Counted from the stretch's first letter, positions 6,936 to 47,289 are shown. The stretch: DNA of 50,399 bases from an uncultured Coriobacteriaceae bacterium (GCA_902764575.1 CACWWI010000003.1:1-50399), one strand, 5' to 3'. Made by a program: numbers and translations. The notes: a model not told the origin generated them from the sequence alone.

Positions 6936-9104
6936 ATGAAGCAGAGCAAGAAAAACGTCGCGAAGAGCGTGGGCTATTCGTTCCTGAGCCTGGCCCTCGC
7001 GTCGGCGACGCTCGTTCCCGCCGTCGCCATCGCCACCGAGAGCGGCGAGGCGGTGCTCCCAACGGGAGGTCCCGATAAGGCGAAGGAGTCGGGCTCCGCG
7101 AGCACGGCGCCCGAGAACCCCGCGAGCAAGGACGAGACGGTGTACGTCTACACGAAGGCGGACGGCTCGGTGAAGAACGTGGAAGTGCGCGCGACGTTGA
7201 AAAACGGGGACGACGCCGCCGAGCTCGCCGACTCGTCCAACCTCTCCGGCATCGAAGTCGACGAGGGCGACGGCGTGTATTCGGGGTCGCCATCCAGCAT
7301 GGTTTGGAGCGCCAACGGGGGAGACGTCACCTACAAGGGCGCGACTGACGCCGCAGCCCCCATCGAGGTGTCCGTCACGTACACGCTCGACGGGAAGCAG
7401 GTGAGCCCCGAGGAGCTCGCGGGCAAGAGCGGTCACGTGGTCGTGCGCTACGACTACGCCAACAACTCGAAGGAGACGGTGGAGGTGAACGGCGCGAGCC
7501 AGGAGGTCTACACGCCGTTCGTTGCCGTCACGGCGGTCCTGCTCGACGGCGACGTGTTCAGCAACGTGTCGGCCACCAACGGGAGGATCGTGGAGGACGG
7601 CGACCGCACGATCGTCGTAGGTTACGCGATGCCTGGCCTCGAGGAGAGCCTCGACCTTTCCGGGAACGATATCGCCATACCCGGTTATTTCGAGTTCGAG
7701 GCGGATGCGAAGAACTTCGCGCTCAAGTCCACGCTGACGATGGCCAGCCCCAACCTGTTCGATGATATGGACCTCGACTTCAACACGTCCGAGCTATCCG
7801 ATGTGTCGGGCTCGCTCACGCAGGCCATGGGCCAGATCGTGAACGGGTCGTCCGAGCTCACGGACGCAATCGAGAAGATCTCCGAGGCGGCGAACGCCGT
7901 GTCGGAGGGCAGCAGCGCGCTGGCTGGACAGTCATCGGCGCTGCCCTCGTCGGCACGCCAGCTCGCATCGGGCGCGCAAGGCGTGTCGGTCGGCATCGCG
8001 CAGGTGCTCGCGTCCGCGCAGGAGCTCGACAAGGGCTTGCTCCAGGTTATCGGTAGCCCCGGTGGCGGCACTGCAGAGGCGTCGGGGCTTGCAGGCGCCG
8101 CAGCCCAAACGGGCCAGCTCAAGCAGGTGGCAAACACGCTCTACGAATCGCTCAAAGCCTCAGCGGGGTCGCTGGGCTCCTCGTCGCTCCAGACGCAATC
8201 GACGAGCTCCAATTCTGAACTGTCCAACCTCGCCGACCGCGTGGCCAACGAAGCGGCCGCGAACCAGTCGGCCATGCAAGACGTCCAAAACACCGCAGGC
8301 CAAGTTGCTGTGTCTGCCTCCCAAGCGCAGGCCGACGCGAGCGCCGCTCAGGCAGCGCTGCAGTCGGTCAATTTGAGCTCGATCGAGGACGCCGCCGTCC
8401 GCGCCCAGGTGCAGGCCCAGCTCGACGCCGCGAGCGCGAGCCTTTCGCAGGCGAATGGGTCGGCCCAGGCGGCAGCTGATGCAGCTGCGAGCTTGCAAGC
8501 TGCCTCGTCGACCATCGACACGAGTGCGGCCACCGAAGCGGCGAGTGCGTTCGGGGCCGTGGGTTCCGGAACGCTGTCAGCGCAGGGGACGGGCGACACC
8601 TCGGCCGTGACTGGCAGCCAGGAGCAAATAGCCATGGCGAAGACGCTCCTCGACGGCCTAACTGCGCTCGAGTCCGGCCTGAACCAAGCGGTAGAGGGCC
8701 TTAGCACGATCGAACAGATGGTTTCGGGCAAGATGCTCGACAAGAGCGGGCTTCCCGCCCTCGCGAACGGCGCCGCGCAGGTGGCCCAGGGCGCTTCCGC
8801 GCTCAGCAACCAGGCACCCGCGCTCGTGGGCGGCATGGGCCAGCTCGCAAGCGGGACGAAGGACCTCGCGGGCGCGCTGGGCGCGTTGGCGACGGGCTCC
8901 CAGGAGCTCACGAGCGGCCTCCAGCAGTTCAGCGACCAGGGCATCTCCGCGCTCGCAAGCGCGCTCGACAGCAAGCTCGTGAGGCCACTCACCCGTTTCG
9001 ACGCCGTTGCGCAAGCGGGCCGCGACTACAAGAACTTCAGCGGCATAACCGAGGGCACCAAGGGCTCGGTGAAGTTCGTGTTCGAAACGGACTCCATAGG
9101 GTAG
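6936..9104 (+). CDS. Secreted protein with a beta-rich N-terminal domain and a long Ala/Ser/Gln-rich xxxLxxG heptad-repeat (YhgE/Pip-like) region
   Basis: Signal peptide MKQSKKNVAKSVGYSFLSLALASATLVPAVAIA. The repeat region is e.g. LTDAIEKISEAANAVSEGSSALAGQSSALPSSARQLASGAQGVSVG. There are no C-terminal TM segments. ATG 6936 is chosen inside ORF 6888-9104. Confidence 0.7.
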   Translation: MKQSKKNVAKSVGYSFLSLALASATLVPAVAIATESGEAVLPTGGPDKAKESGSASTAPENPASKDETVYVYTKADGSVKNVEVRATLKNGDDAAELADSSNLSGIEVDEGDGVYSGSPSSMVWSANGGDVTYKGATDAAAPIEVSVTYTLDGKQVSPEELAGKSGHVVVRYDYANNSKETVEVNGASQEVYTPFVAVTAVLLDGDVFSNVSATNGRIVEDGDRTIVVGYAMPGLEESLDLSGNDIAIPGYFEFEADAKNFALKSTLTMASPNLFDDMDLDFNTSELSDVSGSLTQAMGQIVNGSSELTDAIEKISEAANAVSEGSSALAGQSSALPSSARQLASGAQGVSVGIAQVLASAQELDKGLLQVIGSPGGGTAEASGLAGAAAQTGQLKQVANTLYESLKASAGSLGSSSLQTQSTSSNSELSNLADRVANEAAANQSAMQDVQNTAGQVAVSASQAQADASAAQAALQSVNLSSIEDAAVRAQVQAQLDAASASLSQANGSAQAAADAAASLQAASSTIDTSAATEAASAFGAVGSGTLSAQGTGDTSAVTGSQEQIAMAKTLLDGLTALESGLNQAVEGLSTIEQMVSGKMLDKSGLPALANGAAQVAQGASALSNQAPALVGGMGQLASGTKDLAGALGALATGSQELTSGLQQFSDQGISALASALDSKLVRPLTRFDAVAQAGRDYKNFSGITEGTKGSVKFVFETDSIG

Positions 9105-29739: not shown

Positions 29740-30079
29740 TTTGATGTAGGTTTAGTGAATTAAACCTGCACTGCTGAAGGAGAGCCTGGTGAACAACGTG
29801 TTATCGGGCCGTTTCGGCAGGGGTAAACAGAGAAGAGCGAAAGGAGGAGTTCCTGCAGTCGTTTCTTCCGGCATGAGCCGAACAGGACGCGGGTAAGCCT
29901 TTTAGGGGATGGCGTAAATACGGAGGCGTCCGTAAGTCATGAATGCGAATGCGTCCGTGATTTCCCGCATGTTTGAGCCGGCTGGTATTGCCACTGCAGA
30001 GTGAGCGTGGGCTCACAGTTGGGCGATAGGGGAAATACCGCCCGATTGTCTTTAAGGAAATCCTTTAAAGGAGGGATTG
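29740..30079 (+). promoter_or_regulatory. Long (~330 nt) structured 5' leader upstream of the MFS transporter, class unknown
   Basis: No credible ORF is present. Hairpins: aggttta-N6-taaacct (29749-29768), gggcg-N13-cgccc (30021-30043), and tttaagga-aat-tcctttaaa overlapping the SD aaaggaggg. A long-range pairing ctgcactg / cactgcag is possible. Confidence 0.3.
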
Positions 30080-31807
30080 ATGGACGGCAAAGAATTTACC
30101 GTTTCCGAAGTTATCGACTCGTTCGGTATTAACGGTCATACCTGGCTGATGTTCATCCTGCTGGGTCTGGCAAACATCTTCGACGGTTATGACTTCATGG
30201 TCATTAACGTCACCAACTCTTACGTTGCAGCTACCTTCTGGCCCGACGCCTTCGTTCTCAACGAGGCCACCGGCAAGATGGCTCTGCAGCCGCAGTATTC
30301 CGCTTTGATGGGCTCCCTCACCACGTGGGGCCTGCTGGGCATGGTGCTCGGCGGCGCAACTGGCGGCATCCTCTCCGACCGCATCGGTCGTAAGAAGATG
30401 CTGACGATCGCCGTTCTGTTCTACGGCGTGTTCACGCTGCCGCAGGCGTTCGCGAATGACGTTTACTTCTTCGCGGCGTTCCGTCTGATCGCCGGCTTCG
30501 GCGTCGGCTCCTGCATCCCGGTTGTTACGACCTGCTTCTCTGAGACCATTCCGTCTCAGCACCGTGGCGTGTTCGTAACCTTCGGCATGGCCTTCATGGT
30601 CGCCGGCTGGGTGCTCGCTGGTCTGATCGGCAACCCGATCGCCTCGAACCCGCAGTCGATCCTGGGCGACCTCACCGCTGGTGAAGTCGTCACCGCCGCC
30701 AGCCTCCGTCCGGACGGCTCCATGGTCATCTTCTGCCAGAACTGGCGTCTGTGCTACCTGATCGGCGCTCTGCCCATCATCTACGGCATCCTGCTGTTCT
30801 TCCTGATGCATGAGACTCCGCACTGGTTCGCCAACAGCGGCCAGAAGGAGAAGGCATGCAAGGCTCTGGAGGACATCGCTCACAAGCATCATGATGACAG
30901 CGCTCATTATGATCCCAACCTGCTGGTCGTCCCGCCGAAACCGGCGAACATTGGCCCGCAAGTTCTGTTCTCCAAGAAGTACATCGTGGCAACCGCCGCT
31001 ATTTGGACCACGTACTTCGTTGGTCAGTTCTGCGTGTACGGCATGAACGCCTGGATTCCGACCTGGTTCCAGGGCGTCGGCTACTCCGCCGCTGACTCCA
31101 CGAACCTCCAGACGTGGAACAACTTCGCAGCTATCCTGTCGAACATCTCCGTAGGCTTCGTCTCCGACCGTATCGGCCGTAAGAAGAACCTCGCCGGTTC
31201 CTGGATTGCCTGCATCATCGCCATCATCCTTTGCTCGGTGTTGGTGCAGCCGAACAACATGATGCTGTGCGTCGTTCTGATGCTCCTCTTCGGCTTCTGC
31301 CTGAACTACGCCATCACGGCCGTTCAGCCGCTGATGCCCGAGAGCTATCCGACCGCTCTGCGCAACACCGGTGTTGCTTGGTGCCAGGCGTTCGCTCGCT
31401 TCGGTGGTTCTGGTTCCTCGATCGTTCTCGGCGCTATTGCGGCGAATGCGATCTTCAAGACCGCGGAAGGTGCCACCAACTGGTCGATGGTCGTGCTCGT
31501 TCTCATCGTTCCGTTCCTGCTCGGCTTCATCTGCACGCTTATGTTCGTGCGTGAGACCGGTGGTAAGACGATGGACCAGCTCGCTGCGGAATCCACAACC
31601 GAGGACAAGTCCGACACCGGCAACGCTCTGTTCGGTATCATGATGGTCGTGGCGGCAATCCTTGCAGTTCTCTGCATCGTTTGCCCGCTCGTTGTCCAGG
31701 GTTGGTCTCAGAGCTCGATGGCTCTGCCGCTCATGACGATCGGCATGCTGCTCCCGTTCATCTTCTTCTTCATCTTCGCGACTCCGCAGATCAAGAACAG
31801 CCGTTAA
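30080..31807 (+). CDS. MFS transporter (aromatic acid/H+ symporter-like, extended C-terminus)
   Basis: Polytopic. MFS motifs GILSDRIGRKKML and GFVSDRIGRKKNL. SD aaaggaggg lies 4-5 nt upstream of ATG 30080. Confidence 0.85.
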   Translation: MDGKEFTVSEVIDSFGINGHTWLMFILLGLANIFDGYDFMVINVTNSYVAATFWPDAFVLNEATGKMALQPQYSALMGSLTTWGLLGMVLGGATGGILSDRIGRKKMLTIAVLFYGVFTLPQAFANDVYFFAAFRLIAGFGVGSCIPVVTTCFSETIPSQHRGVFVTFGMAFMVAGWVLAGLIGNPIASNPQSILGDLTAGEVVTAASLRPDGSMVIFCQNWRLCYLIGALPIIYGILLFFLMHETPHWFANSGQKEKACKALEDIAHKHHDDSAHYDPNLLVVPPKPANIGPQVLFSKKYIVATAAIWTTYFVGQFCVYGMNAWIPTWFQGVGYSAADSTNLQTWNNFAAILSNISVGFVSDRIGRKKNLAGSWIACIIAIILCSVLVQPNNMMLCVVLMLLFGFCLNYAITAVQPLMPESYPTALRNTGVAWCQAFARFGGSGSSIVLGAIAANAIFKTAEGATNWSMVVLVLIVPFLLGFICTLMFVRETGGKTMDQLAAESTTEDKSDTGNALFGIMMVVAAILAVLCIVCPLVVQGWSQSSMALPLMTIGMLLPFIFFFIFATPQIKNSR

Positions 31808-35639: not shown

Positions 35640-35906
35640 ATGTGCTTTAGACCTGATTCCGCAGGTGGCGGCGGCCCGATGAAGTGCCCTGGCTGTGGCA
35701 AGCCGATCCAGATGATCGCGGGCATCGAGCTCAAGGCGTGCCCGTTCTGCAAGGAAGACTTCACGCCGTACCTCAACGGCGAGAAGCCGATTCCCGGCCA
35801 GGAAGGCGCAGCTCCTGCTGCCCCCGGCGCCCCCAAGGCCCCCGGCGCCCCCAAGGCTCCCGGCGCCCCCAAGGCTCCCGGTGCTCCCAAGGCTCCTGGT
35901 GCGTAA
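35640..35906 (+). CDS. Small zinc-ribbon protein with a C-terminal APGAPK tandem repeat
   Basis: SD aaggagg lies 7 nt upstream. The zinc ribbon is CPGCGKP...CPFC. The tail is (APGAPK)x4.7. A strong terminator follows. Confidence 0.6.
   Translation: MCFRPDSAGGGGPMKCPGCGKPIQMIAGIELKACPFCKEDFTPYLNGEKPIPGQEGAAPAAPGAPKAPGAPKAPGAPKAPGAPKAPGA
35820..35903 (+). repeat. 18-bp tandem repeat (gcccccggcgcccccaag) x 4.7 within the CDS
   Basis: The units start at 35820, 35838, 35856, 35874 and 35892. Only synonymous third-position differences separate them. Confidence 0.9.
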
Positions 35907-36038: not shown

Positions 36039-36521
36039 ATGAAACTTGGTTCTACCGTGCGCCTTATCTACACCGGCACGTTGAAGGACGGTACCGTCTT
36101 CGGGTATGCCAAGACCGAAGAGCCCATGGAGTTCCAGACGGGCATGGACCTCGTCATCGACGGCCTGGAGCGCGAGATCCTGCAGATGGAGGCCGGCGAG
36201 AAGAAGACGTTCACCATCGGCATGTACGACGCTTACGGCGAGTACCTCGACGACTTCATCGAAGTCGTGCCCGTGGAGAACGTTCCGCTGAAAAACGTTG
36301 AGATCGGCAACCGCATCTGGCTTTCGGGCGAGAACGGCGAGAAGATTCCCGTGAAGATCCTCGACATCAACTCCAAGGAGATCACGTTCGATATGAACCA
36401 TCCCCTTGCGGGCGAGGACCTCACGTTCGAGGTTGAGATCCTGAGCGTCGAGGAGCCTCCCGAGGGCTGGGAGCCCCCCAAGAAGCACGATCCCATGGAG
36501 TACGTGAACCAGCTCACGTAA
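36039..36521 (+). CDS. slyD: FKBP-type peptidyl-prolyl cis-trans isomerase (SlyD-like, with IF insert)
   Basis: VRLIYTGTLKDGTVFG...FQTGMDLVIDGLEREILQMEAGEKKTFTI...NHPLAGEDLTFEVEIL. Confidence 0.85.
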   Translation: MKLGSTVRLIYTGTLKDGTVFGYAKTEEPMEFQTGMDLVIDGLEREILQMEAGEKKTFTIGMYDAYGEYLDDFIEVVPVENVPLKNVEIGNRIWLSGENGEKIPVKILDINSKEITFDMNHPLAGEDLTFEVEILSVEEPPEGWEPPKKHDPMEYVNQLT

Positions 36522-36641: not shown

Positions 36642-36678
36642 GGAGCCGCGGTGCGCAATCCGCGGCTCCTTTCGTTTC
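36642..36678 (+). terminator. Terminator hairpin downstream of slyD
   Basis: ggagccgcgg-N8-ccgcggctcc followed by TTTCGTTTC. Confidence 0.7.
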
Positions 36679-37133: not shown

Positions 37134-39467
37134 ATGGCTTATTCCAAGGAGTGGCGTACCGAAATGCCCGACGGTACAATCGTCACCCGTTCGAACACCT
37201 GGTCGCCTCCGGGATCCCACCCCGTGGGATACGGCGTCAAGGTCGTGACCAAGGACGGCAAGCTCGTCCGCATCGAGGGCGACGATGACAACCCCATTAC
37301 CCTGGGCCGCGTCAACGCTCTGAACCTTGCGCTGCGCGAGTACACGCATCATCCCGACCGCATCATCTACCCGATGAAGCGTGCGGTCGAGGATCGTGGT
37401 AAAGACAAGTGGGTCCGCACCTCTTGGGACGAGTCCCTCGAGGTCATCACCGAGAAGGTTCGTTACTTCTGGGAGACCTATGGTCATGAGTCCATCGTCT
37501 GCTTCGGTGGCACCGGCCGTGAGGCTTGCATTTACTACTATGCTCTGACGTTCTCCGTCCTGCAGTCGCCGAACTGCTGCTACACGCAGTCTGGTTGGTC
37601 CTGCTACGGCCCGCGTTGCTCGGTTTCCGACTACGTCCTCGGCGCTGGTTACCCCGAGCTCGACTATGCTGGCCACCTGCCCGGCTCCTACGACGACCCG
37701 CGTTACACGCTGTCGAAGTACGTCGTGGTCTGGGGCAAGGAACCGCTGCCCTCCAACGGTGACGGCTTCTTCGGTCACTGCCTCGTCGACATGATGAAGC
37801 GTGGCTCCAAGATCATCTCCGTTGACCCGCGCGTCACCTGGGTTGGCGCCCATGACGGCAACATCAACGTTCAGCTGCGTCCGCAGACCGACACCTGCTT
37901 CGCCCTCGGCGTTATGAACCTCATGTTCCAGAACGACGAGTACGATCATGACATGGCTGAGAACTGGATCTTCGGCATCGACGAGCTCAAGGAGCGCGCT
38001 GCTGAGTATCCGGTCGAGAAGGTTTCCGAGATCACCACGGTTTCCGTCGAGACCATCGAGAAGGTCGCGCACATCATCGGCACCGAGCGCCCGATTGGTT
38101 GGGCTTGGGGCCTCGCGTTCGACCAGAACAAGAACGGCGTCCAGCTGTCGCAGTCGATGATCCTCCTGGCCGCTCTGGCTGGCTCGATCGACTCCCCCGG
38201 CGGCCTGACCCTCGGTCCTCCGTCCGCTCTGCTCGGCAAGTGGCGCATGGAGCAGCGTGGCGCAATGTCCGACGAGATTTGGCAGAAGCGCATCGGCGCT
38301 GCTGAGTGGCCCGGCCTGTCCACCGGCATGGCTACCACCCAGCCTGACGAGACGCTGAACACCATGGAGACGCATCAGCCTTATCAGCTGCGTTTCGCTT
38401 GGTTCAACTCCTCCAACTTCCTGGCCCCGACGTGCTCGGCTCAGCCGAAGCGTTGGCACAAGGCGCTGCTCGAGTCCATCGAGTTCTGCGTGATCCAGGA
38501 CCTCTGGATGACCCCGACGGCCATGGCTGTTGGCGACTGGTTCCTCCCGATGGCCACTTGGGCTGAGCATGACGGCATCGTCCTCACCCACTATGGCCGC
38601 AACACCGTGTTCATGGGCCCGATGAACAAGGCCCTGCAGTGCGGCGAGTGCATGTCCGACATCGAGATCTGCCTGATGTTCGGTTCGAAGCTCACCCCGA
38701 ACTGGTGGCCGTGGCTCGACAGCAACTGGATGCCGGGCGACAAGGATGGCGCTGCCATCGACCGCACCGAGCTCGACGCTGCTGTTGACAAGTTCTTCAG
38801 CGATCAGCTGGCTGAGCTCGACATGACCTTCAACGACCTCCGTGAAGAGGGTCTGTATCAGCCTGGTGCCCATGGCTTCGAGTACGACAAGTTCCGCAAG
38901 GGTCTGCTCCGCTTCGACGGCGAGCCTGGCTTCAACACCATCACTGGTCAGATCGAGGCCAACTCGATCCTCTACGCCTCCTGGGGCGAGGATCCGCTGC
39001 CTTACTACGAGGAGCCGAACTACCAGCAGATCGCCCGTCCGCAGGACGCCGAGGCTTATCCGCTGATTTCGACCTCTGGTTCCCGTCGTTACAGCTCCTT
39101 CCACTCCGAGCATCGTCAGGTTCCGTCCCTGCGTCAGATCGATCCGTGGGCATGGGTCCAGATTCCGCCCGAGACCGCCAAGGAATATGGCATCACCGAG
39201 GGCGACTGGGTCGAGGTCTACAACATGTTCGGCGAGGCGCGCTTCAAGGCAGAGATCACTCCTGTCCTGAAGCCGGGCGTCATCAACTGCGCTCATGGTT
39301 GGTGGTATCCTGAGCAGGACGGCGAAGAGCCCAACCTGTTCGGCGTGTGGAAGTCCAACTTCAACAGCCTGGTCCCGCACCAGAACATCGGCAAGCTTGG
39401 CTTCGGCGCTCCCTACAAGGGTGTCATGTGCAACATGAAGCGCGTCCGCAGCCTCGACGAGGATTAA
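37134..39467 (+). CDS. Cytoplasmic bis-MGD molybdopterin (DMSO-reductase superfamily) enzyme, catalytic subunit lacking the FS0 [4Fe-4S] cysteines
   Basis: The fold-typical blocks are DGKLVRIEGDDDNP, PDRIIYPMKR, ISVDPR and a C-terminal MGD-binding barrel (YPLISTSGSRRYSSFHSE...ITEGDWVEVYN...PGVINCAHGWW). There is no Cys in the first 122 aa and no twin-arginine signal. Confidence 0.85.
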   Translation: MAYSKEWRTEMPDGTIVTRSNTWSPPGSHPVGYGVKVVTKDGKLVRIEGDDDNPITLGRVNALNLALREYTHHPDRIIYPMKRAVEDRGKDKWVRTSWDESLEVITEKVRYFWETYGHESIVCFGGTGREACIYYYALTFSVLQSPNCCYTQSGWSCYGPRCSVSDYVLGAGYPELDYAGHLPGSYDDPRYTLSKYVVVWGKEPLPSNGDGFFGHCLVDMMKRGSKIISVDPRVTWVGAHDGNINVQLRPQTDTCFALGVMNLMFQNDEYDHDMAENWIFGIDELKERAAEYPVEKVSEITTVSVETIEKVAHIIGTERPIGWAWGLAFDQNKNGVQLSQSMILLAALAGSIDSPGGLTLGPPSALLGKWRMEQRGAMSDEIWQKRIGAAEWPGLSTGMATTQPDETLNTMETHQPYQLRFAWFNSSNFLAPTCSAQPKRWHKALLESIEFCVIQDLWMTPTAMAVGDWFLPMATWAEHDGIVLTHYGRNTVFMGPMNKALQCGECMSDIEICLMFGSKLTPNWWPWLDSNWMPGDKDGAAIDRTELDAAVDKFFSDQLAELDMTFNDLREEGLYQPGAHGFEYDKFRKGLLRFDGEPGFNTITGQIEANSILYASWGEDPLPYYEEPNYQQIARPQDAEAYPLISTSGSRRYSSFHSEHRQVPSLRQIDPWAWVQIPPETAKEYGITEGDWVEVYNMFGEARFKAEITPVLKPGVINCAHGWWYPEQDGEEPNLFGVWKSNFNSLVPHQNIGKLGFGAPYKGVMCNMKRVRSLDED

Positions 39468-39486
39468 TCGAAAGGGGAAGATCTTA

Positions 39487-39846
39487 ATGGCAGACACTCA
39501 ATACGGCCTGCTCGTTGACTACACGTACTTCTCCGGCAATCACGCTGCAGAGATTGCCTGCAAGGAGGAACTTGGTCTTCCGCTCGAGCAGTTTGGTATC
39601 AAGGAAGTCGAAGTCGGCCCCTTCCGCAAGGGCGAGGGTGACACTGGCGACGCTTGGGAATGGTTCTACATTCCTTGCCCGACCAGCATCTTCTCCGAGC
39701 ACTGGGGAGCCGGTGGCGATAAGGCCGGTCAGCGTCCCGTCGCTGTCCAGGTCGAAGAGTCTCACTCCATGTTCTATGGCCCTCTCGATGAGATGTACGC
39801 CAAGATGCAGGAGTTTGACCGCCCGACCGTTCTGTTCCGTCTCTAA
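39487..39846 (+). CDS. Degenerate ferredoxin-like (beta-subunit-derived) small subunit lacking Fe-S cluster cysteines
   Basis: YGLLVDYTYFSGNHAAEIACKEE mimics the N-terminal YG..VD...C.GC.AC..ACK.E motif of 4Fe-4S beta subunits, with 3 of 4 Cys replaced. The 119-aa protein has only 2 Cys. It lies 20 nt after the alpha stop. Confidence 0.7.
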   Translation: MADTQYGLLVDYTYFSGNHAAEIACKEELGLPLEQFGIKEVEVGPFRKGEGDTGDAWEWFYIPCPTSIFSEHWGAGGDKAGQRPVAVQVEESHSMFYGPLDEMYAKMQEFDRPTVLFRL

Positions 39847-39864
39847 AGTTTTGTGATAGACTTG

Positions 39865-39892
39865 GGTGCGGCCGTCAAGCGGCGGCCGCACC
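39865..39892 (+). other. Intercistronic 10-bp GC-rich stem-loop without a U-tract
   Basis: ggtgcggccg-N8-cggccgcacc lies between the beta-like gene and the third ORF, just 5' of the SD gaaggaggg. Confidence 0.6.
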
Positions 39893-39912
39893 TAGAAGAA
39901 GGAGGGACACAT

Positions 39913-40197
39913 ATGGATCGTGAAGAACTTCTGGCTCTAGACAACAGCGAGATCGCGAAGCTTCTCAACGACGCAATTGCCGCAGGCAAGACCAAGGACG
40001 AGGCGCTGGCCGAGTACCAGCTCGACGCTCCTGAGCTGATGAAGCAGAACATCTTCTGGGTCAAGGACAAGTTCCTGGCTCGCGCGTGGTCTGGCTACAC
40101 CAGCACGAAGCGTTCCGGCAACGAGTATGCTCAGGAAGGCGACGGCTGGCGCGGCGACGACGTCAAGGACTTCAAGGGCCGCGAGGTGCCTTGGTAG
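39913..40197 (+). CDS. Hypothetical 94-aa protein, third gene of the molybdoenzyme operon
   Basis: SD gaaggaggg precedes ATG 39913. Codon style matches the upstream genes. A strong terminator follows. No family was recognised. Confidence 0.55.
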   Translation: MDREELLALDNSEIAKLLNDAIAAGKTKDEALAEYQLDAPELMKQNIFWVKDKFLARAWSGYTSTKRSGNEYAQEGDGWRGDDVKDFKGREVPW

Positions 40198-40229: not shown

Positions 40230-40254
40230 GGGGTGGCTTCGGCCACCCCTTTTC
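40230..40254 (+). terminator. Rho-independent terminator of the molybdoenzyme operon
   Basis: ggggtggc-ttcg-gccacccc followed by TTTTC. Confidence 0.9.
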
Positions 40255-40398: not shown

Positions 40399-40725
40399 AT
40401 GGCAACCGAAGAAGAGATCCGCGCAGAAGGTCGTTTGACCGAAGAGCAGGAGAACATCCTGTACAATATCGCGCTCAGGCAGGACGAGCTCGGCCGTGAG
40501 CCTACCAACGTCCTGCTCTCCAAGATCGAGAATAACCCGGTTTATCAAGGCATGATCGACCGCGAGCTCCTCACCTATCAGGTGTACAACCATGGCGGGG
40601 AAGGCGCTCCTGTTGTGGCGAGCCTCATCGTCACCCTCAAGGGCATGCGCTACTGCATCATGTACGGCGACGAGATCGAGCCTCGCCGCAAGTACGACAC
40701 CGCCGGTCGCCGTAGGGACCTGTAA
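40399..40725 (+). CDS. Hypothetical 108-aa protein
   Basis: The ORF starts at an ATG after ggaaggtgatgtgagg. No family was recognised. A terminator-like hairpin follows. Confidence 0.5.
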   Translation: MATEEEIRAEGRLTEEQENILYNIALRQDELGREPTNVLLSKIENNPVYQGMIDRELLTYQVYNHGGEGAPVVASLIVTLKGMRYCIMYGDEIEPRRKYDTAGRRRDL

Positions 40726-40852: not shown

Positions 40853-43120
40853 GTGGCATTAGGTGATGGGGTATCGGCAATAGCGTCGCTAGGCACGCTG
40901 GGAGTTACGTTCGGCGGCTTCTCGCCAACATTGATGAACGGCGTCGACACCTCCAAGGAGATGGTGGCGCAGTACGAGGCGATACACGAGCAGCGCAAAG
41001 AGGCCAAGAAGAAGCAACGTGAGCTTGAGTCGGCGCGCACGTCCAAGCCGATGAGCTTGGTCGATGAAAACGGCAACGTCTGGACATACGTCATCATAGA
41101 CGAGCGCGTGGCGCGCATCACGAAATGCGAGACGAGGAACGCGCGGGTTGAGTTTCCTGCTGAAATCGGGGGCGTTCCCGTGTATGCCATCGGCCCGGAG
41201 GCGCTTTCGGAGAACCCCGCTGTAGAGGAAATCGTATGCGCCGATTCCATCGAGAGCATCGGGGCTTGCGCGTTCAGGCTCAACGACAACCTCAGAAGGG
41301 TCGTGTTCCCGTACAACGTCACCGACTTCAACGAGAGCTGGGTCCGGCGATGCCCGCGGCTACAGGAGCTCGTGCTGCCGGGGTTGCTCGACGAGATAAA
41401 GCTGCACGTGCTCGATAACAGGAGCTTGAAGAGGCTCGTCATCGGGAAGAACGTATACAGCATCGAACCCGGCGCGTTCCAGAACACGCAGCTGTCCGAG
41501 GTGACCATCGATAGCGAGAACCCGTTTATAAAAACCGATGGCATAGGGATATACTCCTCGGACAACTCGGCGCTCTATGCGCTCGCGCGCCCAGTCGATC
41601 GCTACGAAGTGCTCGATGGTTGCACTGTGCTTGCGAAGAAGAGCTGTTATGGCATAGAAGCGCTGAAATCGATAACGTTGCCCGAGAGCGTGGAGCAGCT
41701 CGACGCATTCGCGCTATCGCATTCGGGCATTACCGGGTTCGTGGCCCCGAGCGCGCTGCGGACAATCGGGGAGAAGGCGTTCTACTACTGCAAGGACCTT
41801 GCGAGCGTGCGGCTCAACGACGGCCTCGTTTACCTCGGCGATTCGGCGTTCGAGGAAAGCGGGCTGTCCGCCTTGCGCATCCCTGCAAGCATCGAGCACA
41901 TCGGCACTTCCATTACGGCACGAACCGAGGTGGTGCATTCGGGCGACGGTTGCACGCTCGAGATCGATTCGCTATGCGAGCGCTTCTTCCTCGACGGAGC
42001 AGGTGGGCTCTACCGCAAGGCCGAGGACGGGGCACATCTCGTTCAGCTGATCGACCGCGAGATGCGCACGTACGAGATGGGGGCCGATGCGGTCGCCATC
42101 GACCCCTATGCGTTCGCGTACCATACGGTTGTCGAGCGGGTGGTCGTGAACGACGGCGTTAAGGTCATCGGGAGGAACGCGTTTCGCGTGTGCAACAAGC
42201 TCACGCAGGTCGAGCTGCCCGATTCCGTCGTCGAGATTGGGGATGAGGCGTTCCTCGACTCGAATCTCAAGTCGTTCAGGGTGCCCGCGAGCCTCGAGAA
42301 GCTCGGCAAGAACGCGCTCATAACGTATGGCGCGCATCACGGCGGCGCTATGCCGTCGCTTGCGCACGTGGAGGTGGCGCCTGGCAACGAACGCTTCTAC
42401 CTTGTGTCGGGCATGCTCTGCGAACGGCGCGAGTCGGGGTCGGCGGTCATCATATTCACGAGCTCGGAGGAGCACGTCGTGTTCCCCGAAGAGATAACGC
42501 GCGTTGAGGAGTTCGCCTTCAACAACGCGCGCGGGATAGACTATCTGGGACTCAATCCCGGTCTCAAGACGATTGGGCTATCCGGGCTGGCCACCTGGTG
42601 CTGGATTCGCCATATCCACGTGGAGCTCCCAGAGCCGCTCGAGGGGCGCACGGAATACGATTTCTTCTTTCCCGACACGCCCAAGGGCATCCACGGCATC
42701 TGTAACGGCATCGGTGGATCCGCGTGGGTGAACGTGCCAGCGATCATGGCGCAGTACGACAACTGCATCGTGAACGCGCGCGATTACAACTCGCCGATGA
42801 GCAGCGACAACATTACGGCATACGAGCAGGCGAAGCTCATACTCGGGCGTATGAACGACCCTATCATGCTCACGGATGTCAACCGTGGCATGTTCGAGCG
42901 GCTGCTGCGCACCTATATCGGCGAGATCTGCGTCGACATCGCGCGTCATGACGACCGCGAGGCGATGGACGAGCTCATAGACCGTGGGTTCGTGAACGAG
43001 GATAATCTCGAGAGCATAATCACGCGGGTGGGGCGCTTGCAGGATGCCGCCATGACCGCGCATCTGCTGGAAGTGAAGCGCCTAAGGTTCAACAAGGCCA
43101 TCATAGATTTCGACCTCTAA
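40853..43120 (+). CDS. BspA-type leucine-rich repeat (LRR_5-like) protein, no obvious signal peptide, helical C-terminal domain
   Basis: SD aaggag lies 6 nt before GTG 40853. There are many ~23-25 aa repeats of the type L..V.IP.SV..IG..AF..C..L, e.g. LKSITLPESVEQLDAFALSHS, LASVRLNDGLVYLGDSAFEES and LTQVELPDSVVEIGDEAFLDS. Confidence 0.8.
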   Translation: MALGDGVSAIASLGTLGVTFGGFSPTLMNGVDTSKEMVAQYEAIHEQRKEAKKKQRELESARTSKPMSLVDENGNVWTYVIIDERVARITKCETRNARVEFPAEIGGVPVYAIGPEALSENPAVEEIVCADSIESIGACAFRLNDNLRRVVFPYNVTDFNESWVRRCPRLQELVLPGLLDEIKLHVLDNRSLKRLVIGKNVYSIEPGAFQNTQLSEVTIDSENPFIKTDGIGIYSSDNSALYALARPVDRYEVLDGCTVLAKKSCYGIEALKSITLPESVEQLDAFALSHSGITGFVAPSALRTIGEKAFYYCKDLASVRLNDGLVYLGDSAFEESGLSALRIPASIEHIGTSITARTEVVHSGDGCTLEIDSLCERFFLDGAGGLYRKAEDGAHLVQLIDREMRTYEMGADAVAIDPYAFAYHTVVERVVVNDGVKVIGRNAFRVCNKLTQVELPDSVVEIGDEAFLDSNLKSFRVPASLEKLGKNALITYGAHHGGAMPSLAHVEVAPGNERFYLVSGMLCERRESGSAVIIFTSSEEHVVFPEEITRVEEFAFNNARGIDYLGLNPGLKTIGLSGLATWCWIRHIHVELPEPLEGRTEYDFFFPDTPKGIHGICNGIGGSAWVNVPAIMAQYDNCIVNARDYNSPMSSDNITAYEQAKLILGRMNDPIMLTDVNRGMFERLLRTYIGEICVDIARHDDREAMDELIDRGFVNEDNLESIITRVGRLQDAAMTAHLLEVKRLRFNKAIIDFDL

Positions 43121-43172
43121 CTTGTTTATACTTAGCGATGATACATTGCTGAGTAAACGTTAGGTAATCGAA

Positions 43173-44843
43173 TTGGCACAGGTGGTCGATCAGAAGCAAG
43201 TGCGCCAAGAGCGCGCTCGCAAGTTGGCGTTGGATGTCATCGACGAGTGCCGCGTGCAGCTGATGCTCAAGTTCCGCTTCCTCGATTTGGCGTTGTGGCG
43301 CATGGAATCGGAGGCGACCAGCGTCCAGGCGCGCTATGCCCTCGCGACCGACGGCCAGCGCGTGTACTTCGAGCCGTTTACGGTGCTCGGTCGGTTCGAC
43401 GCCAGCTTCAACGAGATGGTGCGCGACTACCTTCACCTGGTGATGCACTGCATATTCAGGCACCCGTTCGACAAGCTGCACGACCGCCACGAGGCATGGT
43501 GGCTCGCGTGCGACGTCATCGCCGAGAGCGTTTCCATGGAGATGTGCGGAGGCCGCTTCGAGAGCGAGCTCGACAAGGAACGGCGCGGCGCGCTCTCCGA
43601 GCTCAAGCTCATGTGCGGGGCGCTGACGCCCGGCAAGCTGTACGGGCTGTTCATGAAATCGCTCACCGCGCCCGAGGGAAGCTCCATGCAGGTGCTCAGC
43701 GACGCGCGCATGAACGAGTTCCGCGCTCTGTTCGAGCGCGACAACCACGAGGCATGGCCCTCCTACGCGAAGGGAAAGCCCGAGGAAACGCCGGGCGACA
43801 TCGAAGAGCTCGCGCAGCCGGGCGACGAAGGGGACGAGCCTGCCGACACCGAGCAGCAGATGGTCGTTGACGGCGAGATGGAGGAAGCCGACTCCGAGAA
43901 CCAGGAAGTGAAGAACCCCGAGTCATCCGAGGAATCCAGCGACTCCGAGGACGAGGCCGAGGGAACGTCTGCCGACGCGAACGATACGACCGATGCCGAA
44001 GACGCCGAGGACACCATAGAATCGGGCTTCCAGGGCAGCTCCTCGTCCGACGACGAGGACAGCGACGAGGTTGAGGACGAGAAGTCCGAGGACGAGCGCG
44101 ATTGGGAGGAAATCGCCAAGCAGATCGAGATGAACCTCGAGACGTTCTCGAAGGAGTGGGGCGACGAGGCGGGGAGCCTCATAACGAGCCTCACCATCGC
44201 CAACCGCAAGAAGTACGACTACTCCGACTTCCTGCGGCGCTTCGCGGTGCTCTCCGAGGAGATGAAGATCAACGACGACGAGTACGACTACGTGTTCTAC
44301 ACCTATGGGCTTGAGCTGTACGGCAACATGCCGCTCGTCGAGCCGCTCGAGTACAAGGAGACGCAGCGCATCCGCGATTTCGTCATCTGCATCGACACGT
44401 CGGAGTCGTGCAGGGGCGACCTCGTGCGCAAGTTCGTGGAGCACACGTTCAACGTTATCAAGAAATCAGAGGACTACGCCCATGAGGTGAACATCCACGT
44501 CATCCAATGCGATGCGAAGGTGCAGGCCGACACGAAGATCACCGATCTGCGCGACGTGGACGTGTTCATGGACGGGTTCTTCGTTCGCGGCATGGGCGGC
44601 ACCGATTTCCGCCCTGCGTTCGCGTACGTGAACCAGCTCGTGGACAGGGGAGAGCTGCCCGACATGAAGGGCATGATCTACTTCACCGACGGCCTGGGCC
44701 AGTATCCGGACAAGGCGCAAGACTACGACGTCGCGTTCGTGTTCATGGACGACGGGCAGAACAACATCCCGTCGGTGCCGCCCTGGGCCATGCGCGTGCT
44801 CATTGACGAAGAGGGTATCAACCGCTTTAGGAGCGAACTGTAG
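43173..44843 (+). CDS. DUF2201-type protein: degenerate metallopeptidase-like N-domain, acidic linker, C-terminal vWA domain with intact MIDAS
   Basis: The N-domain has HLVMHCIFRH where relatives carry HExxH. The linker is ~110 aa and D/E/S-rich. The vWA MIDAS residues are DTSES...GGTD...FTDG. The start is TTG (or nearby GTG). Confidence 0.8.
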   Translation: MAQVVDQKQVRQERARKLALDVIDECRVQLMLKFRFLDLALWRMESEATSVQARYALATDGQRVYFEPFTVLGRFDASFNEMVRDYLHLVMHCIFRHPFDKLHDRHEAWWLACDVIAESVSMEMCGGRFESELDKERRGALSELKLMCGALTPGKLYGLFMKSLTAPEGSSMQVLSDARMNEFRALFERDNHEAWPSYAKGKPEETPGDIEELAQPGDEGDEPADTEQQMVVDGEMEEADSENQEVKNPESSEESSDSEDEAEGTSADANDTTDAEDAEDTIESGFQGSSSSDDEDSDEVEDEKSEDERDWEEIAKQIEMNLETFSKEWGDEAGSLITSLTIANRKKYDYSDFLRRFAVLSEEMKINDDEYDYVFYTYGLELYGNMPLVEPLEYKETQRIRDFVICIDTSESCRGDLVRKFVEHTFNVIKKSEDYAHEVNIHVIQCDAKVQADTKITDLRDVDVFMDGFFVRGMGGTDFRPAFAYVNQLVDRGELPDMKGMIYFTDGLGQYPDKAQDYDVAFVFMDDGQNNIPSVPPWAMRVLIDEEGINRFRSEL

Positions 44844-44856
44844 ATAGGAGAGCTGC

Positions 44857-47289
44857 ATGAACATCGCAACAGCGAAAGAGCAGATCAAGGACACCGTAGA
44901 GGCGTACCTGCAGAAAGACGACGCGGGGATGTACGTCATCAGCCCGTCGCGGCAGCGCCCGATGTTCCTCGTGGGCGCGCCGGGCATCGGCAAGACGGCC
45001 ATCATCGAGCAGATAGCGCAGGAGCTGCAGATCGGCGTGGTGTCGTACTCGATGACGCATCACACGCGCCAGAGCGCGCTCGGCTTGCCGCGTATCGTGC
45101 ACTGCGAGTTCGAGGGGTTCGAGTACGAGGCCTCCGAGTACACGATGAGCGAGATCGTGAGCGCGATCTACGACTACATGGAGCGCTCGGGCGAGCGCAA
45201 GGGCATCCTGTTCCTCGACGAGATCAACTGCGTCTCGGAGACGCTGTACCCGTCGATGCTCCAGTTCCTGCAGTTCAAGACGTTCGGCCGCCACAAGGTG
45301 CCCGATGACTGGATCATCGTGTGCGCGGGCAACCCGCCCGAGTACAACAAGTCGGTGCACGAGTTCGACATCGTGACGCTCGACCGCCTGCGCGAGATCG
45401 ACGTCGAGCCCGATTACGCCGCGTTCAAGCGCTACGCCACCGAGAAGGGCATCCATCCGGCGGTGACGACGTTCCTCGAGGCTAAGCCCGACTGCTTCTA
45501 CAAGGTTGAGAGCAAGCCGGGCGGTGGCAAGAGCTTCGTGACGGCGCGCGGCTGGGAAGACCTCGCCGAGGTGATAACGCTCTACGAGCAGCTGGGCAAG
45601 CCGTGCGACCGCGAGCTGTTCGTGCAGTTCCTGCGCGACGACGACATCGCCGATCGCTTCTCGGTGTACTACAGCCTGTTCGACAAGTACCGCTCCGACT
45701 ACCAGATCGGCAAGATCTTGGCCGGCTCCGCGAGCCGCGACGTGGTGGAGCGCGCGAAGAACGCGCCGTTCGACGAGCGCGTGGCACTGCTGGGCCTGGT
45801 TCTGGACGCACTCGCGCTGCAGTGCTCCGCCACGCTCGACCAGGAGGGCCTGGTCGTCGCGATGCGAGACGAGCTGCGCTTGGCCAAGCCGCTGCTCATG
45901 GAGGGCTACACGGTCGAAGACGCCATCGTGAAGCCGCTCCACGCACGCGAGGACGCGCTCGACCGCAAGCTGGCCGCAGGCACGGCCAAGAAGTCCTTCG
46001 TGCGCAGCGAGAACCTCTACCTGCGCAAGATCCGCGACGTCGTGGACGCCTGCGTGGCCGAGCACACCGAGGAGGGCCCCGCGGCGTTCGAGACGGTGAA
46101 CAAGAGCTATCGCGCCGAGGTGGACAAGATCAGCCCGCTCGTCGAGGAAACCCAGAAGAAGATGAACAACGCGTTCGCGTTCATCGAGGACAGCTACGGC
46201 AATAACCGCGAGATGCTCGTCTTCATGGCAGAGCTCACGACGCGCGCGATCACGACGCAGTTCATCGCGCATTACGGCAACGACGCGTACTACGCCCACA
46301 ACGACGAGCTGAAGGTCGACGAGGCGCGCAAGGGCCTCACGGAGCGCGTACGCGAGCTGAGCAACCTCGAGGAGGAGGTCAGGAGCTCGCAGGCGCTCGA
46401 GTCGAACGACCTCGACATGGGCAGCGCCGTCGGGTTGGGCCGAGCGGCATCGAGCGTTCCCAAGCCGGAGCGTTCCGGCGAGGAGCCGGGCTCTTCGCCC
46501 GCTGAGGGGAATGCGCATCCGGAGCTCGACTCGTATTACGAGGACAAGCACGAGCGCGAGGACGGTTTCGACAGCGCATGCCGCATGACGCTTCCCGTGG
46601 AAGGCGACATAGACGGCTACTACCACAACCGCGAGCACGAGTTCGGGTTCGCCTCCATGAGCCGCATGACGCTGCCCGGCATGAAGGGCCAGCGCGTGCT
46701 CAACGTATGCTGCCGTCGCGGCAAGGGCGTGTTCAAGATGTCGGCTATGGTGGGGAAGAAGGGCCGCGTGATCGGAACCGACTGGTCGCCGTCCTACATT
46801 GCCGAGGCAGAGGCCGATTCCGAGCGCGCGTGGCGCAAGAACCACCTGCAGGAAAGCAACATGGAGTTCCATGTGGCGTACCCCGAGGACCTCATGGAGG
46901 CAGGTATCGGCGACAATTCGGTCGACATGGTCTACATCAACAATGTCATGACGCTGCTCTACGACCAGGAGAAAGCCATCAAGGAGTTCTACCGCGTGCT
47001 AAAGCCGGGCGGGCTGCTCGTGTGCGAGACCATCTTCTCCGACAAGGAGCGCGACGACGAAGTCGTGCGCAAGGCGCGCGCCATAGGCAACAGCGTCCAG
47101 GCCGGCCGCACGAAGGAGGAGCTGTTCGCCCTGCTGTCGGCCGCCGGGTTCGGTAAGCCCGAGATCGTCGACGAGTTCGAGGTGGCTGCCGACCAGGGGT
47201 TCAAGGCCAATCGTACCGTCGAGGTCGTCGAGAGCGACGAGGACGTGACGTTCTCCGCCGTCGCCATCAACGTGAGGAAGCCCGAATAG
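44857..47289 (+). CDS. MoxR/AAA_5-type ATPase fused to a long helical region and a C-terminal class I SAM-methyltransferase-like domain
   Basis: Walker A is GAPGIGKT and Walker B is ILFLDEIN. The C-terminal region is VLNVCCRRGKG...VIGTDWS...VDMVYINNVM...LKPGGLLVCE (ArsM/Methyltransf_31-like). SD aggaga precedes the ATG. Confidence 0.8.
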   Translation: MNIATAKEQIKDTVEAYLQKDDAGMYVISPSRQRPMFLVGAPGIGKTAIIEQIAQELQIGVVSYSMTHHTRQSALGLPRIVHCEFEGFEYEASEYTMSEIVSAIYDYMERSGERKGILFLDEINCVSETLYPSMLQFLQFKTFGRHKVPDDWIIVCAGNPPEYNKSVHEFDIVTLDRLREIDVEPDYAAFKRYATEKGIHPAVTTFLEAKPDCFYKVESKPGGGKSFVTARGWEDLAEVITLYEQLGKPCDRELFVQFLRDDDIADRFSVYYSLFDKYRSDYQIGKILAGSASRDVVERAKNAPFDERVALLGLVLDALALQCSATLDQEGLVVAMRDELRLAKPLLMEGYTVEDAIVKPLHAREDALDRKLAAGTAKKSFVRSENLYLRKIRDVVDACVAEHTEEGPAAFETVNKSYRAEVDKISPLVEETQKKMNNAFAFIEDSYGNNREMLVFMAELTTRAITTQFIAHYGNDAYYAHNDELKVDEARKGLTERVRELSNLEEEVRSSQALESNDLDMGSAVGLGRAASSVPKPERSGEEPGSSPAEGNAHPELDSYYEDKHEREDGFDSACRMTLPVEGDIDGYYHNREHEFGFASMSRMTLPGMKGQRVLNVCCRRGKGVFKMSAMVGKKGRVIGTDWSPSYIAEAEADSERAWRKNHLQESNMEFHVAYPEDLMEAGIGDNSVDMVYINNVMTLLYDQEKAIKEFYRVLKPGGLLVCETIFSDKERDDEVVRKARAIGNSVQAGRTKEELFALLSAAGFGKPEIVDEFEVAADQGFKANRTVEVVESDEDVTFSAVAINVRKPE

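Follow-up and report, generated by a model that had tools for sequence, protein, structure and literature searches.

An Ortholog of the Gordonibacter Catechol Dehydroxylase Hcdh without Iron–Sulfur Ligands in Either Subunit in an Uncultured Coriobacteriaceae Bacterium

Introduction

How can a molybdoenzyme work as a reductase when both of its subunits have lost the residues that hold iron–sulfur (Fe–S) clusters, and is it a reductase at all? The question is raised by positions 37,134–40,197 of a 50,399-nucleotide stretch of DNA from an uncultured Coriobacteriaceae bacterium (GCA_902764575.1, CACWWI010000003.1:1-50399). The whole 50-kb stretch is called the window below, and the genes under study are three open reading frames (ORFs), alpha, beta, and gamma. 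A sequence-only reading of this DNA had described alpha as a bis-molybdopterin guanine dinucleotide (bis-MGD) catalytic subunit without the cysteines of the FS0 cluster and beta as a ferredoxin-derived subunit without its clusters. It considered this subunit configuration to be novel, and it predicted hydratase, transhydroxylase, or isomerase chemistry on a substrate that may be phenolic. As described below, alpha and beta are orthologous to Hcdh of Gordonibacter pamelaeae (Gp Hcdh). The function is therefore already established, and the remaining interest lies in the route by which electrons enter a fully cluster-free member of the family. The features concerned are as follows.

37134–39467, + strand: hcdhA-like catalytic bis-MGD subunit, cytoplasmic, without FS0 Cys (alpha; 777 amino acids (aa); PF00384 and PF01568)
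37188–37331, + strand: former FS0 segment, residues 19–66, with Asn21, Tyr33, Asn61, and Asn64 instead of four Cys
37602–37604, + strand: codon of the predicted Mo ligand Cys157, invariant in 81 sequences and aligned with the ligand Cys of acetylene hydratase
39487–39846, + strand: hcdhB-like accessory subunit, ferredoxin-derived, without cluster ligands (beta; 119 aa)

Results and discussion

Orthology with Hcdh of G. pamelaeae

Alpha and beta, which are separated by 19 nt, are 81% and 86% identical, respectively, to their counterparts at the G. pamelaeae locus (L041; alpha at L041:6001-8310). Judged from these sequences, the window genes are an ortholog of Gp Hcdh (HcdhA/HcdhB), so that the enzyme type has already been described and the claim of a novel subunit configuration falls: the two-subunit enzyme was reported by Bae et al. 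2024 (PMC11585353). In that work, Gp Hcdh (first called Unk-9) was natively purified from G. pamelaeae 3C as a 770-aa catalytic subunit and an "accessory subunit". Supplied with methyl viologen and dithionite, it turns hydrocaffeic acid (HCA) into 3-hydroxyphenylpropionate (mHPPA), with a kcat of 28 per min and a Km of 0.24 mM. Its Mo content is about one per protein, and HCA induces it more than 250-fold. In cultures, mHPPA accumulates; growth and ATP formation are sustained by the reaction as they are by dimethyl sulfoxide (DMSO). Deletion of hcdh in G. urolithinfaciens results in loss of the activity and of HCA-dependent ATP formation (PMC11585353). The phenolic substrate suggested by the sequence-only reading thus agrees with the action of the ortholog on hydrocaffeic acid.

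In the published sequence similarity network (SSN), the threshold for the Hcdh cluster is a catalytic subunit at least 72% identical to GpHcdhA. The window genes show this identity (81%), a 119-aa HcdhB directly downstream, and no twin-arginine translocation (Tat) signal. The LuxR gene, also a criterion of that cluster, gave no match in a tblastn search across the 50-kb window.

The published proteins share the Cys-less segments. The Table S1 sequences of SSN cluster 9 (Unk-9, i.e., Gp Hcdh) start with MAYGKQWRTELEDGTVVTRSNTWSPPGSHPVGYGVK, the same Cys-less N-terminus. The peptides in Table S4 include SNTWSPPGSHPVGYGVK for GpHcdhA (A0A369M2P7, C1877_07565, 770 aa), and YALLVDYTYFSGNHAAEIACK and AGQRPLAVQVEESASMYYGTLEEMQAK for GpHcdhB (A0A369M407, C1877_07560, 119 aa, 70% coverage) (PMC11585353). 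The cluster 9 start and all these peptides are exact substrings of L041, and the peptides span the Cys-less segments of both subunits. This exact match of the GpHcdhA and GpHcdhB peptides to L041 shows that the two Cys-less proteins are translated products, which purify together as the active enzyme.

The catalytic subunit

Alpha contains the Pfam domains PF00384 (Molybdopterin) and PF01568 (Molydop_binding). The Fe4S4 domain PF04879 scores 16.8 bits in the Pfam search, under its cut-off of 22.7 bits. By direct count, alpha has no Cys before residue 123, where its first one stands, and no RR pair is found within residues 1–45, so that the protein has no Tat leader. Alpha lies outside the BisC/TorA-type families (bisC_fam, 106.8 bits vs. 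a cut-off of 1017.55; torA, 74.5 vs. 1465). PF04879 is missing in the close homologs, which share 67% identity or more and come without exception from Coriobacteriia; it is present in homologs at 55–60% identity from Peptococcaceae, Sporomusa, Geobacter, and some Coriobacteriales.

We compared the residues of 53 clade members with those of 51 relatives at 55–60% identity. Asn21, Tyr33, Asn61, and Asn64 are invariant in the clade (53/53), whereas each of these positions is Cys in 48–51 of the 51 relatives. The relatives read RTC-GWSPPGDHPVG-C-G...GRL-C-VR-C, and the window sequence reads RSN-TWSPPGSHPVG-Y-G...GRV-N-AL-N. The remainder of the FS0 loop is conserved as a WSPPG.HPVG.G frame with invariant His29. 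No compensating set of Cys is found in the alignment of the 53 clade members. Clade-specific Cys residues are C106 (47/53; Thr in the window), C148 (46/53), and C719 (49/53), at which the relatives have Val, Val, and Ala, respectively. Two further Cys residues, C149 and C162, flank the ligand Cys157 and are found family-wide.

The best match of alpha in the PDB is acetylene hydratase (2e7z), both by sequence (E 1e-62) and by fold (template modeling (TM) score 0.81/0.86). The invariant Cys157 in the WSCYGPR motif aligns with the tungsten ligand Cys141 (chain position 138) of that enzyme. His29 aligns with the site of the catalytic Asp13, through GPG-C-H-NG-C of Dodh, another Gordonibacter-type dehydroxylase, and C12-D13-IN-C16 of acetylene hydratase, and would therefore occupy the place of Asp13. 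The AlphaFold2 model of alpha has a predicted local distance difference test (pLDDT) value of 89.3 and a predicted TM score of 0.90, and its least confident block is the former FS0 segment (pLDDT 63). Alpha also shows the strongest codon bias for its third-position GC content (GC3) among the window genes (effective number of codons 31.6 at GC3 0.82), which is compatible with, though no proof of, high expression. The ratio of nonsynonymous to synonymous substitution rates (Ka/Ks), determined here and below against seven loci, is 0.13–0.25 for alpha.

The accessory subunit

Beta has no Pfam family, Fer4 included, and a sequence search against PDB chains gave no match; the NCBIfam search gave a weak match with the N-terminal part of DmsB (E 0.002). 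It is nevertheless 35–43% identical to the 111–123-aa partners of the cluster-bearing relatives (Sporomusa L081, Geobacter L083, and Coriobacteriales L084, L085, and L086), with 41% identity and a BLASTP E value of 5e-26 for the Cys-rich Geobacter partner. These partners carry CxxCxxCxxxC plus CxxC...CxxxC..C. At the same positions, the window protein has F, N, A, and C25, and F, H, A, E, and S, so that one of roughly nine Cys is kept. By direct count, beta has two Cys (residues 25 and 64). Conservation across 55 Cys-less beta homologs is limited to C25 and H19, which the cluster-bearing proteins have as well. Bulky residues stand at or beside former ligand positions: F15, F69, and W73 in beta, and Y33 in alpha. 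The AlphaFold2 model of beta has a pLDDT of 91, and its top fold matches, PsrB and FdhB, are weak. Ka/Ks is 0.01–0.18, from which the Cys-less beta is strongly constrained. Both alpha and beta are under purifying selection.

The sequence-only reading is borne out in these structural points. It had described alpha as a cytoplasmic protein without FS0 Cys and with its first Cys at 123, expected neither Fe4S4 nor Fer4 matches, and taken beta, with its two Cys, to be derived from a ferredoxin. The homology of both subunits to Cys-bearing relatives and their partners likewise upholds its proposal of descent from a cluster-bearing redox alpha–beta enzyme.

Extent of the cluster loss

For a survey of the family, 1.84 billion representative proteins were scanned, and 113 full-length 50%-cluster representatives and two references were examined. 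About 100 of these sequences retain four or more Cys in their FS0 segments. Two other lineages are informative. In the P0297/L086 lineage, FS0 is lost (N, A, P, M; alpha at L086 5001-7653), and in the P0066/L085 lineage, it is degenerate (C, H, D, T; alpha at L085 6001-8720), yet both retain a Cys-rich beta with all cluster Cys. This observation suggests that FS0 is dispensable in the family and that its loss probably preceded the loss of the beta clusters. It also limits the complete loss, among the sequences examined, to the Eggerthellaceae clade of the window. Within this set, Hcdh alone has lost FS0 together with every ligand set for the partner clusters, yet it catalyzes a two-electron reduction.

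Proposed mechanism and alternative explanations

With high confidence, we regard HcdhA as a cytoplasmic bis-MGD catechol reductive dehydroxylase with Cys157 as the predicted Mo ligand, and HcdhB as a bound, vestigial mini-ferredoxin. In the proposed mechanism, Mo would cycle between the IV and VI states at the Cys157-ligated bis-MGD center. The para-hydroxyl group of the catechol would be removed, with its oxygen leaving via Mo, in a net 2e−/2H+ reduction. His29 on the former FS0 loop would be the probable proton donor in the active site. Since there is no internal Fe–S relay, electrons would have to enter Mo or the pterin directly. They may be delivered by a diffusible reductant that passes the substrate funnel, a part played by methyl viologen in vitro, or by a redox partner that docks transiently. 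HcdhB would be retained as a structural or accessory scaffold.

A further step is more tentative, and we hold it with somewhat short of even confidence: that Hcdh truly lacks Fe–S clusters, and that a diffusible donor or a transient partner reduces Mo or the pterin directly by two electrons in vivo, the ferredoxin remnant being only a scaffold or docking surface. If so, the route would be new for the clade, and the link to ATP would bypass the conventional electron-transfer chain. The loss of the ligands makes a question testable, namely, which electron donor serves the enzyme and how it is coupled to ATP. It also makes Hcdh a natural minimal system for catechol dehydroxylation at Mo, free of Fe–S spectroscopic background.

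The chemistry predicted by the sequence-only reading is non-redox or internally balanced: hydration, isomerization, or transfer of O/OH at Mo from a substrate to its co-substrate, without any external reductant. The absence of Fe–S ligands from both subunits is in line with it, as are the non-redox nature of acetylene hydratase, the nearest solved structure, and the fact that the papers examined on Gp Hcdh name no physiological electron donor; a sacrificial oxygen acceptor in vivo is formally possible. However, loss of the Fe–S relay does not imply non-redox chemistry, because DorA, TorA, and BisC, bis-MGD reductases long known to be cluster-free, accept electrons directly at Mo or the pterin. 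Pyrogallol transhydroxylase is distant in fold (rank 15, TM 0.70). The prediction is contradicted by the characterized ortholog, a net two-electron reductive dehydroxylase for which reduced methyl viologen was the sole added reductant in the conversion of HCA to mHPPA, and whose product accumulates in cultures with growth and ATP supported as with DMSO (PMC11585353). We therefore consider non-redox chemistry to be very improbable. It is scarcely credible, in turn, that clusters persist through non-Cys ligands or in a further partner (gamma, a 108-aa ORF, or a Zn-ribbon protein, described later), the relay being only disguised. Conserved residues do exist (His19, Glu22, and Cys25 in beta; His29 in alpha), and a Zn-ribbon ORF with CxxC...CxxC often lies upstream. 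These His, Glu, and Cys residues are not replacement ligands, because they are equally present in the cluster-bearing relatives, and the residues that did replace the ligands (F, N, A, and Y) occupy the cavity and do not bind metal. By direct count, Cys and His are both missing from gamma, and the 108-aa ORF contains a single Cys and a single His. None of the five tryptic peptides searched for these two (0/3 for gamma and 0/2 for the 108-aa ORF) is listed in the proteomics data for the purification fractions. The Zn-ribbon gene is paired with an FKBP gene on the opposite strand in L085.

Other points weigh against reading the window copy as a cluster-free Hcdh acting on HCA. An ATP-yielding role in electron transport is hard to reconcile with the lack of a relay. 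A 2025 paper states that the small subunit of the Gordonibacter type binds Fe–S. According to a review from 2024, the catalytic subunits of Gordonibacter are without the Eggerthella-type Fe–S motif and use fewer clusters. By sequence, neither wording fits Hcdh exactly, since Dodh has the four Cys and Hcdh has no such set in either subunit. No statement that the enzyme is Fe–S-free was found in the papers examined that mention Gp Hcdh, and the ligand loss has apparently gone unremarked in that literature. As for the substrate, the window alpha is 81% identical to the characterized enzyme, whereas the orthologs from Raoultibacter, Paraeggerthella, Adlercreutzia, and Ellagibacter, genera of HCA-active species, are 89–95% identical to it. 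The authors themselves note that identity below 80% possibly means a different substrate. No LuxR ortholog was found by tblastn in the window or beside its closest relatives; in G. pamelaeae, hcdh adjoins a gene for a membrane-bound LuxR regulator (PMC11585353), and L041 contains a LuxR gene, as do the surroundings of 38 of the loci. The window and L001–L004 (uncultured Eggerthellaceae/Coriobacteriaceae metagenome-assembled genomes (MAGs), one from roe deer jejunum) form a sub-lineage that is 80–83% identical to the main Hcdh group. This sub-lineage might be the same enzyme type acting on another catechol acid under other regulation, as the lower identity, the missing regulator, the 7-residue difference in length, and the distinct flanking gene order would allow; the neighboring enzyme Gs Vadh uses the related phenylvaleric acid (2025 paper). 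On the other hand, the window lies inside the published 72% threshold of the Hcdh cluster, all 71 sequences form one group with an average distance below 22%, and the ortholog of the major facilitator superfamily (MFS) transporter is kept. We consider another substrate to be unlikely, though a serious competitor. For the reductive dehydroxylase of the window, HCA or a close phenolic-acid analogue is thus the substrate we infer, and only infer, because the sub-lineage is distinct and lacks a LuxR ortholog.

The Hcdh alphas of L041, L045, L046, L034, and L007 (Gordonibacter, Raoultibacter, Paraeggerthella, and Adlercreutzia) are mutually 94–95% identical. Such identity is unusually high between genera, which suggests recent horizontal spread among human-gut Eggerthellaceae.

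Neighboring genes and flanking elements

The surroundings of hcdhAB were compared in the 80 best genomic loci (Gordonibacter, Adlercreutzia, Raoultibacter, Paraeggerthella, Ellagibacter, Slackia, and many MAGs). The other features of the window are as follows.

30077–31807, + strand: MFS transporter (PF07690), orthologous to the transporter beside Gp hcdh; 70% identity to the L041 protein
35640–35906, + strand: Zn-ribbon ORF, a recurrent neighbor by synteny
36039–36521, + strand: SlyD-like FKBP isomerase (FKBP_C match), a recurrent neighbor
36642–36669, + strand: terminator-like hairpin 5' of the operon, after the FKBP gene (10-bp stem, nine GC pairs, T-rich tail)
39913–40197, + strand: gamma-like ORF, a conserved neighbor (94 aa from ATG; no family)
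40230–40249, + strand: terminator-like hairpin 3' of gamma (8-bp stem, seven GC pairs, TTTTCT tail)
40399–40725, + strand: conserved 108-aa ORF with its own terminator-like site (synteny; no Pfam or NCBIfam family)

Synteny of alpha, beta, gamma, and the 108-aa ORF is found in nearly all of the 80 loci, in the case of gamma in about 75 Eggerthellaceae loci. The order in L041 is LuxR (minus strand), MFS, Zn-ribbon, hcdhA, hcdhB, and gamma. In the window, the MFS gene lies 5 kb upstream, behind unrelated genes; it is kept beside many orthologs.

For gamma, the gene caller places the start at ATG 39913, with a GGAGG ribosome-binding site; an alternative GTG at 39853 gives 114 aa. Gamma has no Pfam or NCBIfam family, as the sequence-only reading had stated, and the homolog search gave only close "hypothetical proteins". 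Ka/Ks is 0.09–0.58 for gamma and 0.09–0.34 for the 108-aa ORF, which shows 46–91% identity in most loci. Gamma-like ORFs (38–41% identity) also lie 3' of beta in cluster-bearing relatives (L084 11073-11336 and L085 8798-9031). The proposal that gamma belongs to the complex was dropped, since its searched peptides are absent and its homologs follow cluster-bearing relatives as well; gamma is probably a conserved neighbor and not an enzyme subunit. Of the small ORFs, both beta and gamma are thus conserved, and translation is supported by peptides for the beta ortholog, whereas the gamma peptides searched were not found. In L086, the ORF at 7690-7902 resembles the N-terminus of gamma by eye and contains a helix-turn-helix-like stretch, TVADICQELGISRAQLQGLG. 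From this stretch and the gamma-like ORFs that follow cluster-bearing relatives, gamma may be a small regulator.

The Zn-ribbon ORF has a CxxC...CxxC motif and a Pro/Ala-rich tail, and lies about 250 bp 5' of alpha in many loci. It was considered as a rubredoxin-like donor and rejected, since in L085 (1119-1827) it pairs with the FKBP gene on the opposite strand. The Zn-ribbon protein and the SlyD-like FKBP may be maturation helpers.

The hairpins at 36642–36669 and 40230–40249 flank the three genes, as the sequence-only reading had noted, though the number of terminator-like sites in the region (6) is not raised over that in shuffled sequences (4.7 ± 2.4). The spacer from the beta stop to the gamma start contains a GC-rich hairpin, GGTGCGGCCG-TCAAGCG-CGGCCGCACC, at window positions 39862–39890, without a T-run behind it. 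Such an element may act in mRNA stability, processing, or attenuation and so separate gamma expression from that of hcdhAB. Further downstream, window positions 40853–47289 encode a 755-aa leucine-rich-repeat protein of the BspA type, a 556-aa DUF2201/VWA protein, and a MoxR-like AAA ATPase fused to a methyltransferase (810 aa). The first two are kept 3' of the operon in many loci.

Comparison with known systems

The window enzyme shares with Gp Hcdh the Cys-less FS0 segment and B subunit, the gene order A-B-gamma-orf108, the absence of a Tat leader, and a nearby MFS ortholog. It differs in the length of alpha (777 vs. 770 aa), the absence of a co-localized LuxR gene, and the distance of the MFS gene (5 kb). 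Other Gordonibacter-type dehydroxylases (Dodh, SSN cluster 16) and the relatives from Firmicutes and Geobacter share the clade, size, cytoplasmic location, SCY.PR motif, and a small downstream partner, often with an MFS gene and a gamma-like ORF. In contrast to Hcdh, Dodh has four Cys in the FS0 segment (GPGCHNGCG...GRLCLRCL), and the relatives read RTC..VGCG..GRLCVRC. The partners in the relatives L081 and L083–L086 keep CxxCxxCxxxC plus CxxC..CxxxC..C.

Acetylene hydratase of Pelobacter acetylenicus (2e7z), the closest solved structure, is likewise cytoplasmic with a Cys ligand. It differs in being a non-redox enzyme with W, an FS0 [4Fe-4S] cluster, and catalytic Asp13 (His29 here), at 24% identity; it is a monomer, whereas beta co-purifies in the ortholog of the window enzyme. 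The Type III enzymes (DorA, TorA, BisC, and MtsZ) have no Fe–S cluster in the catalytic subunit and are reduced directly at Mo or the pterin, and may be the best functional analogy for the reduction of Hcdh. However, they have a Ser ligand, are monomeric, belong to another branch, and are not known to have had a vestigial ferredoxin subunit.

Pyrogallol–phloroglucinol transhydroxylase (4v4c) also acts on a phenolic ring with bis-MGD, and has an alpha subunit without FS0 and a beta subunit. It is distant (Foldseek rank 15), depends on a co-substrate, and catalyzes no net redox change; its beta subunit keeps three [4Fe-4S] clusters. Complexes of the DmsAB/PsrAB/FdnGH type are defined by the FS0 Cys motif and a cluster-ligating beta subunit, and the window genes have neither.

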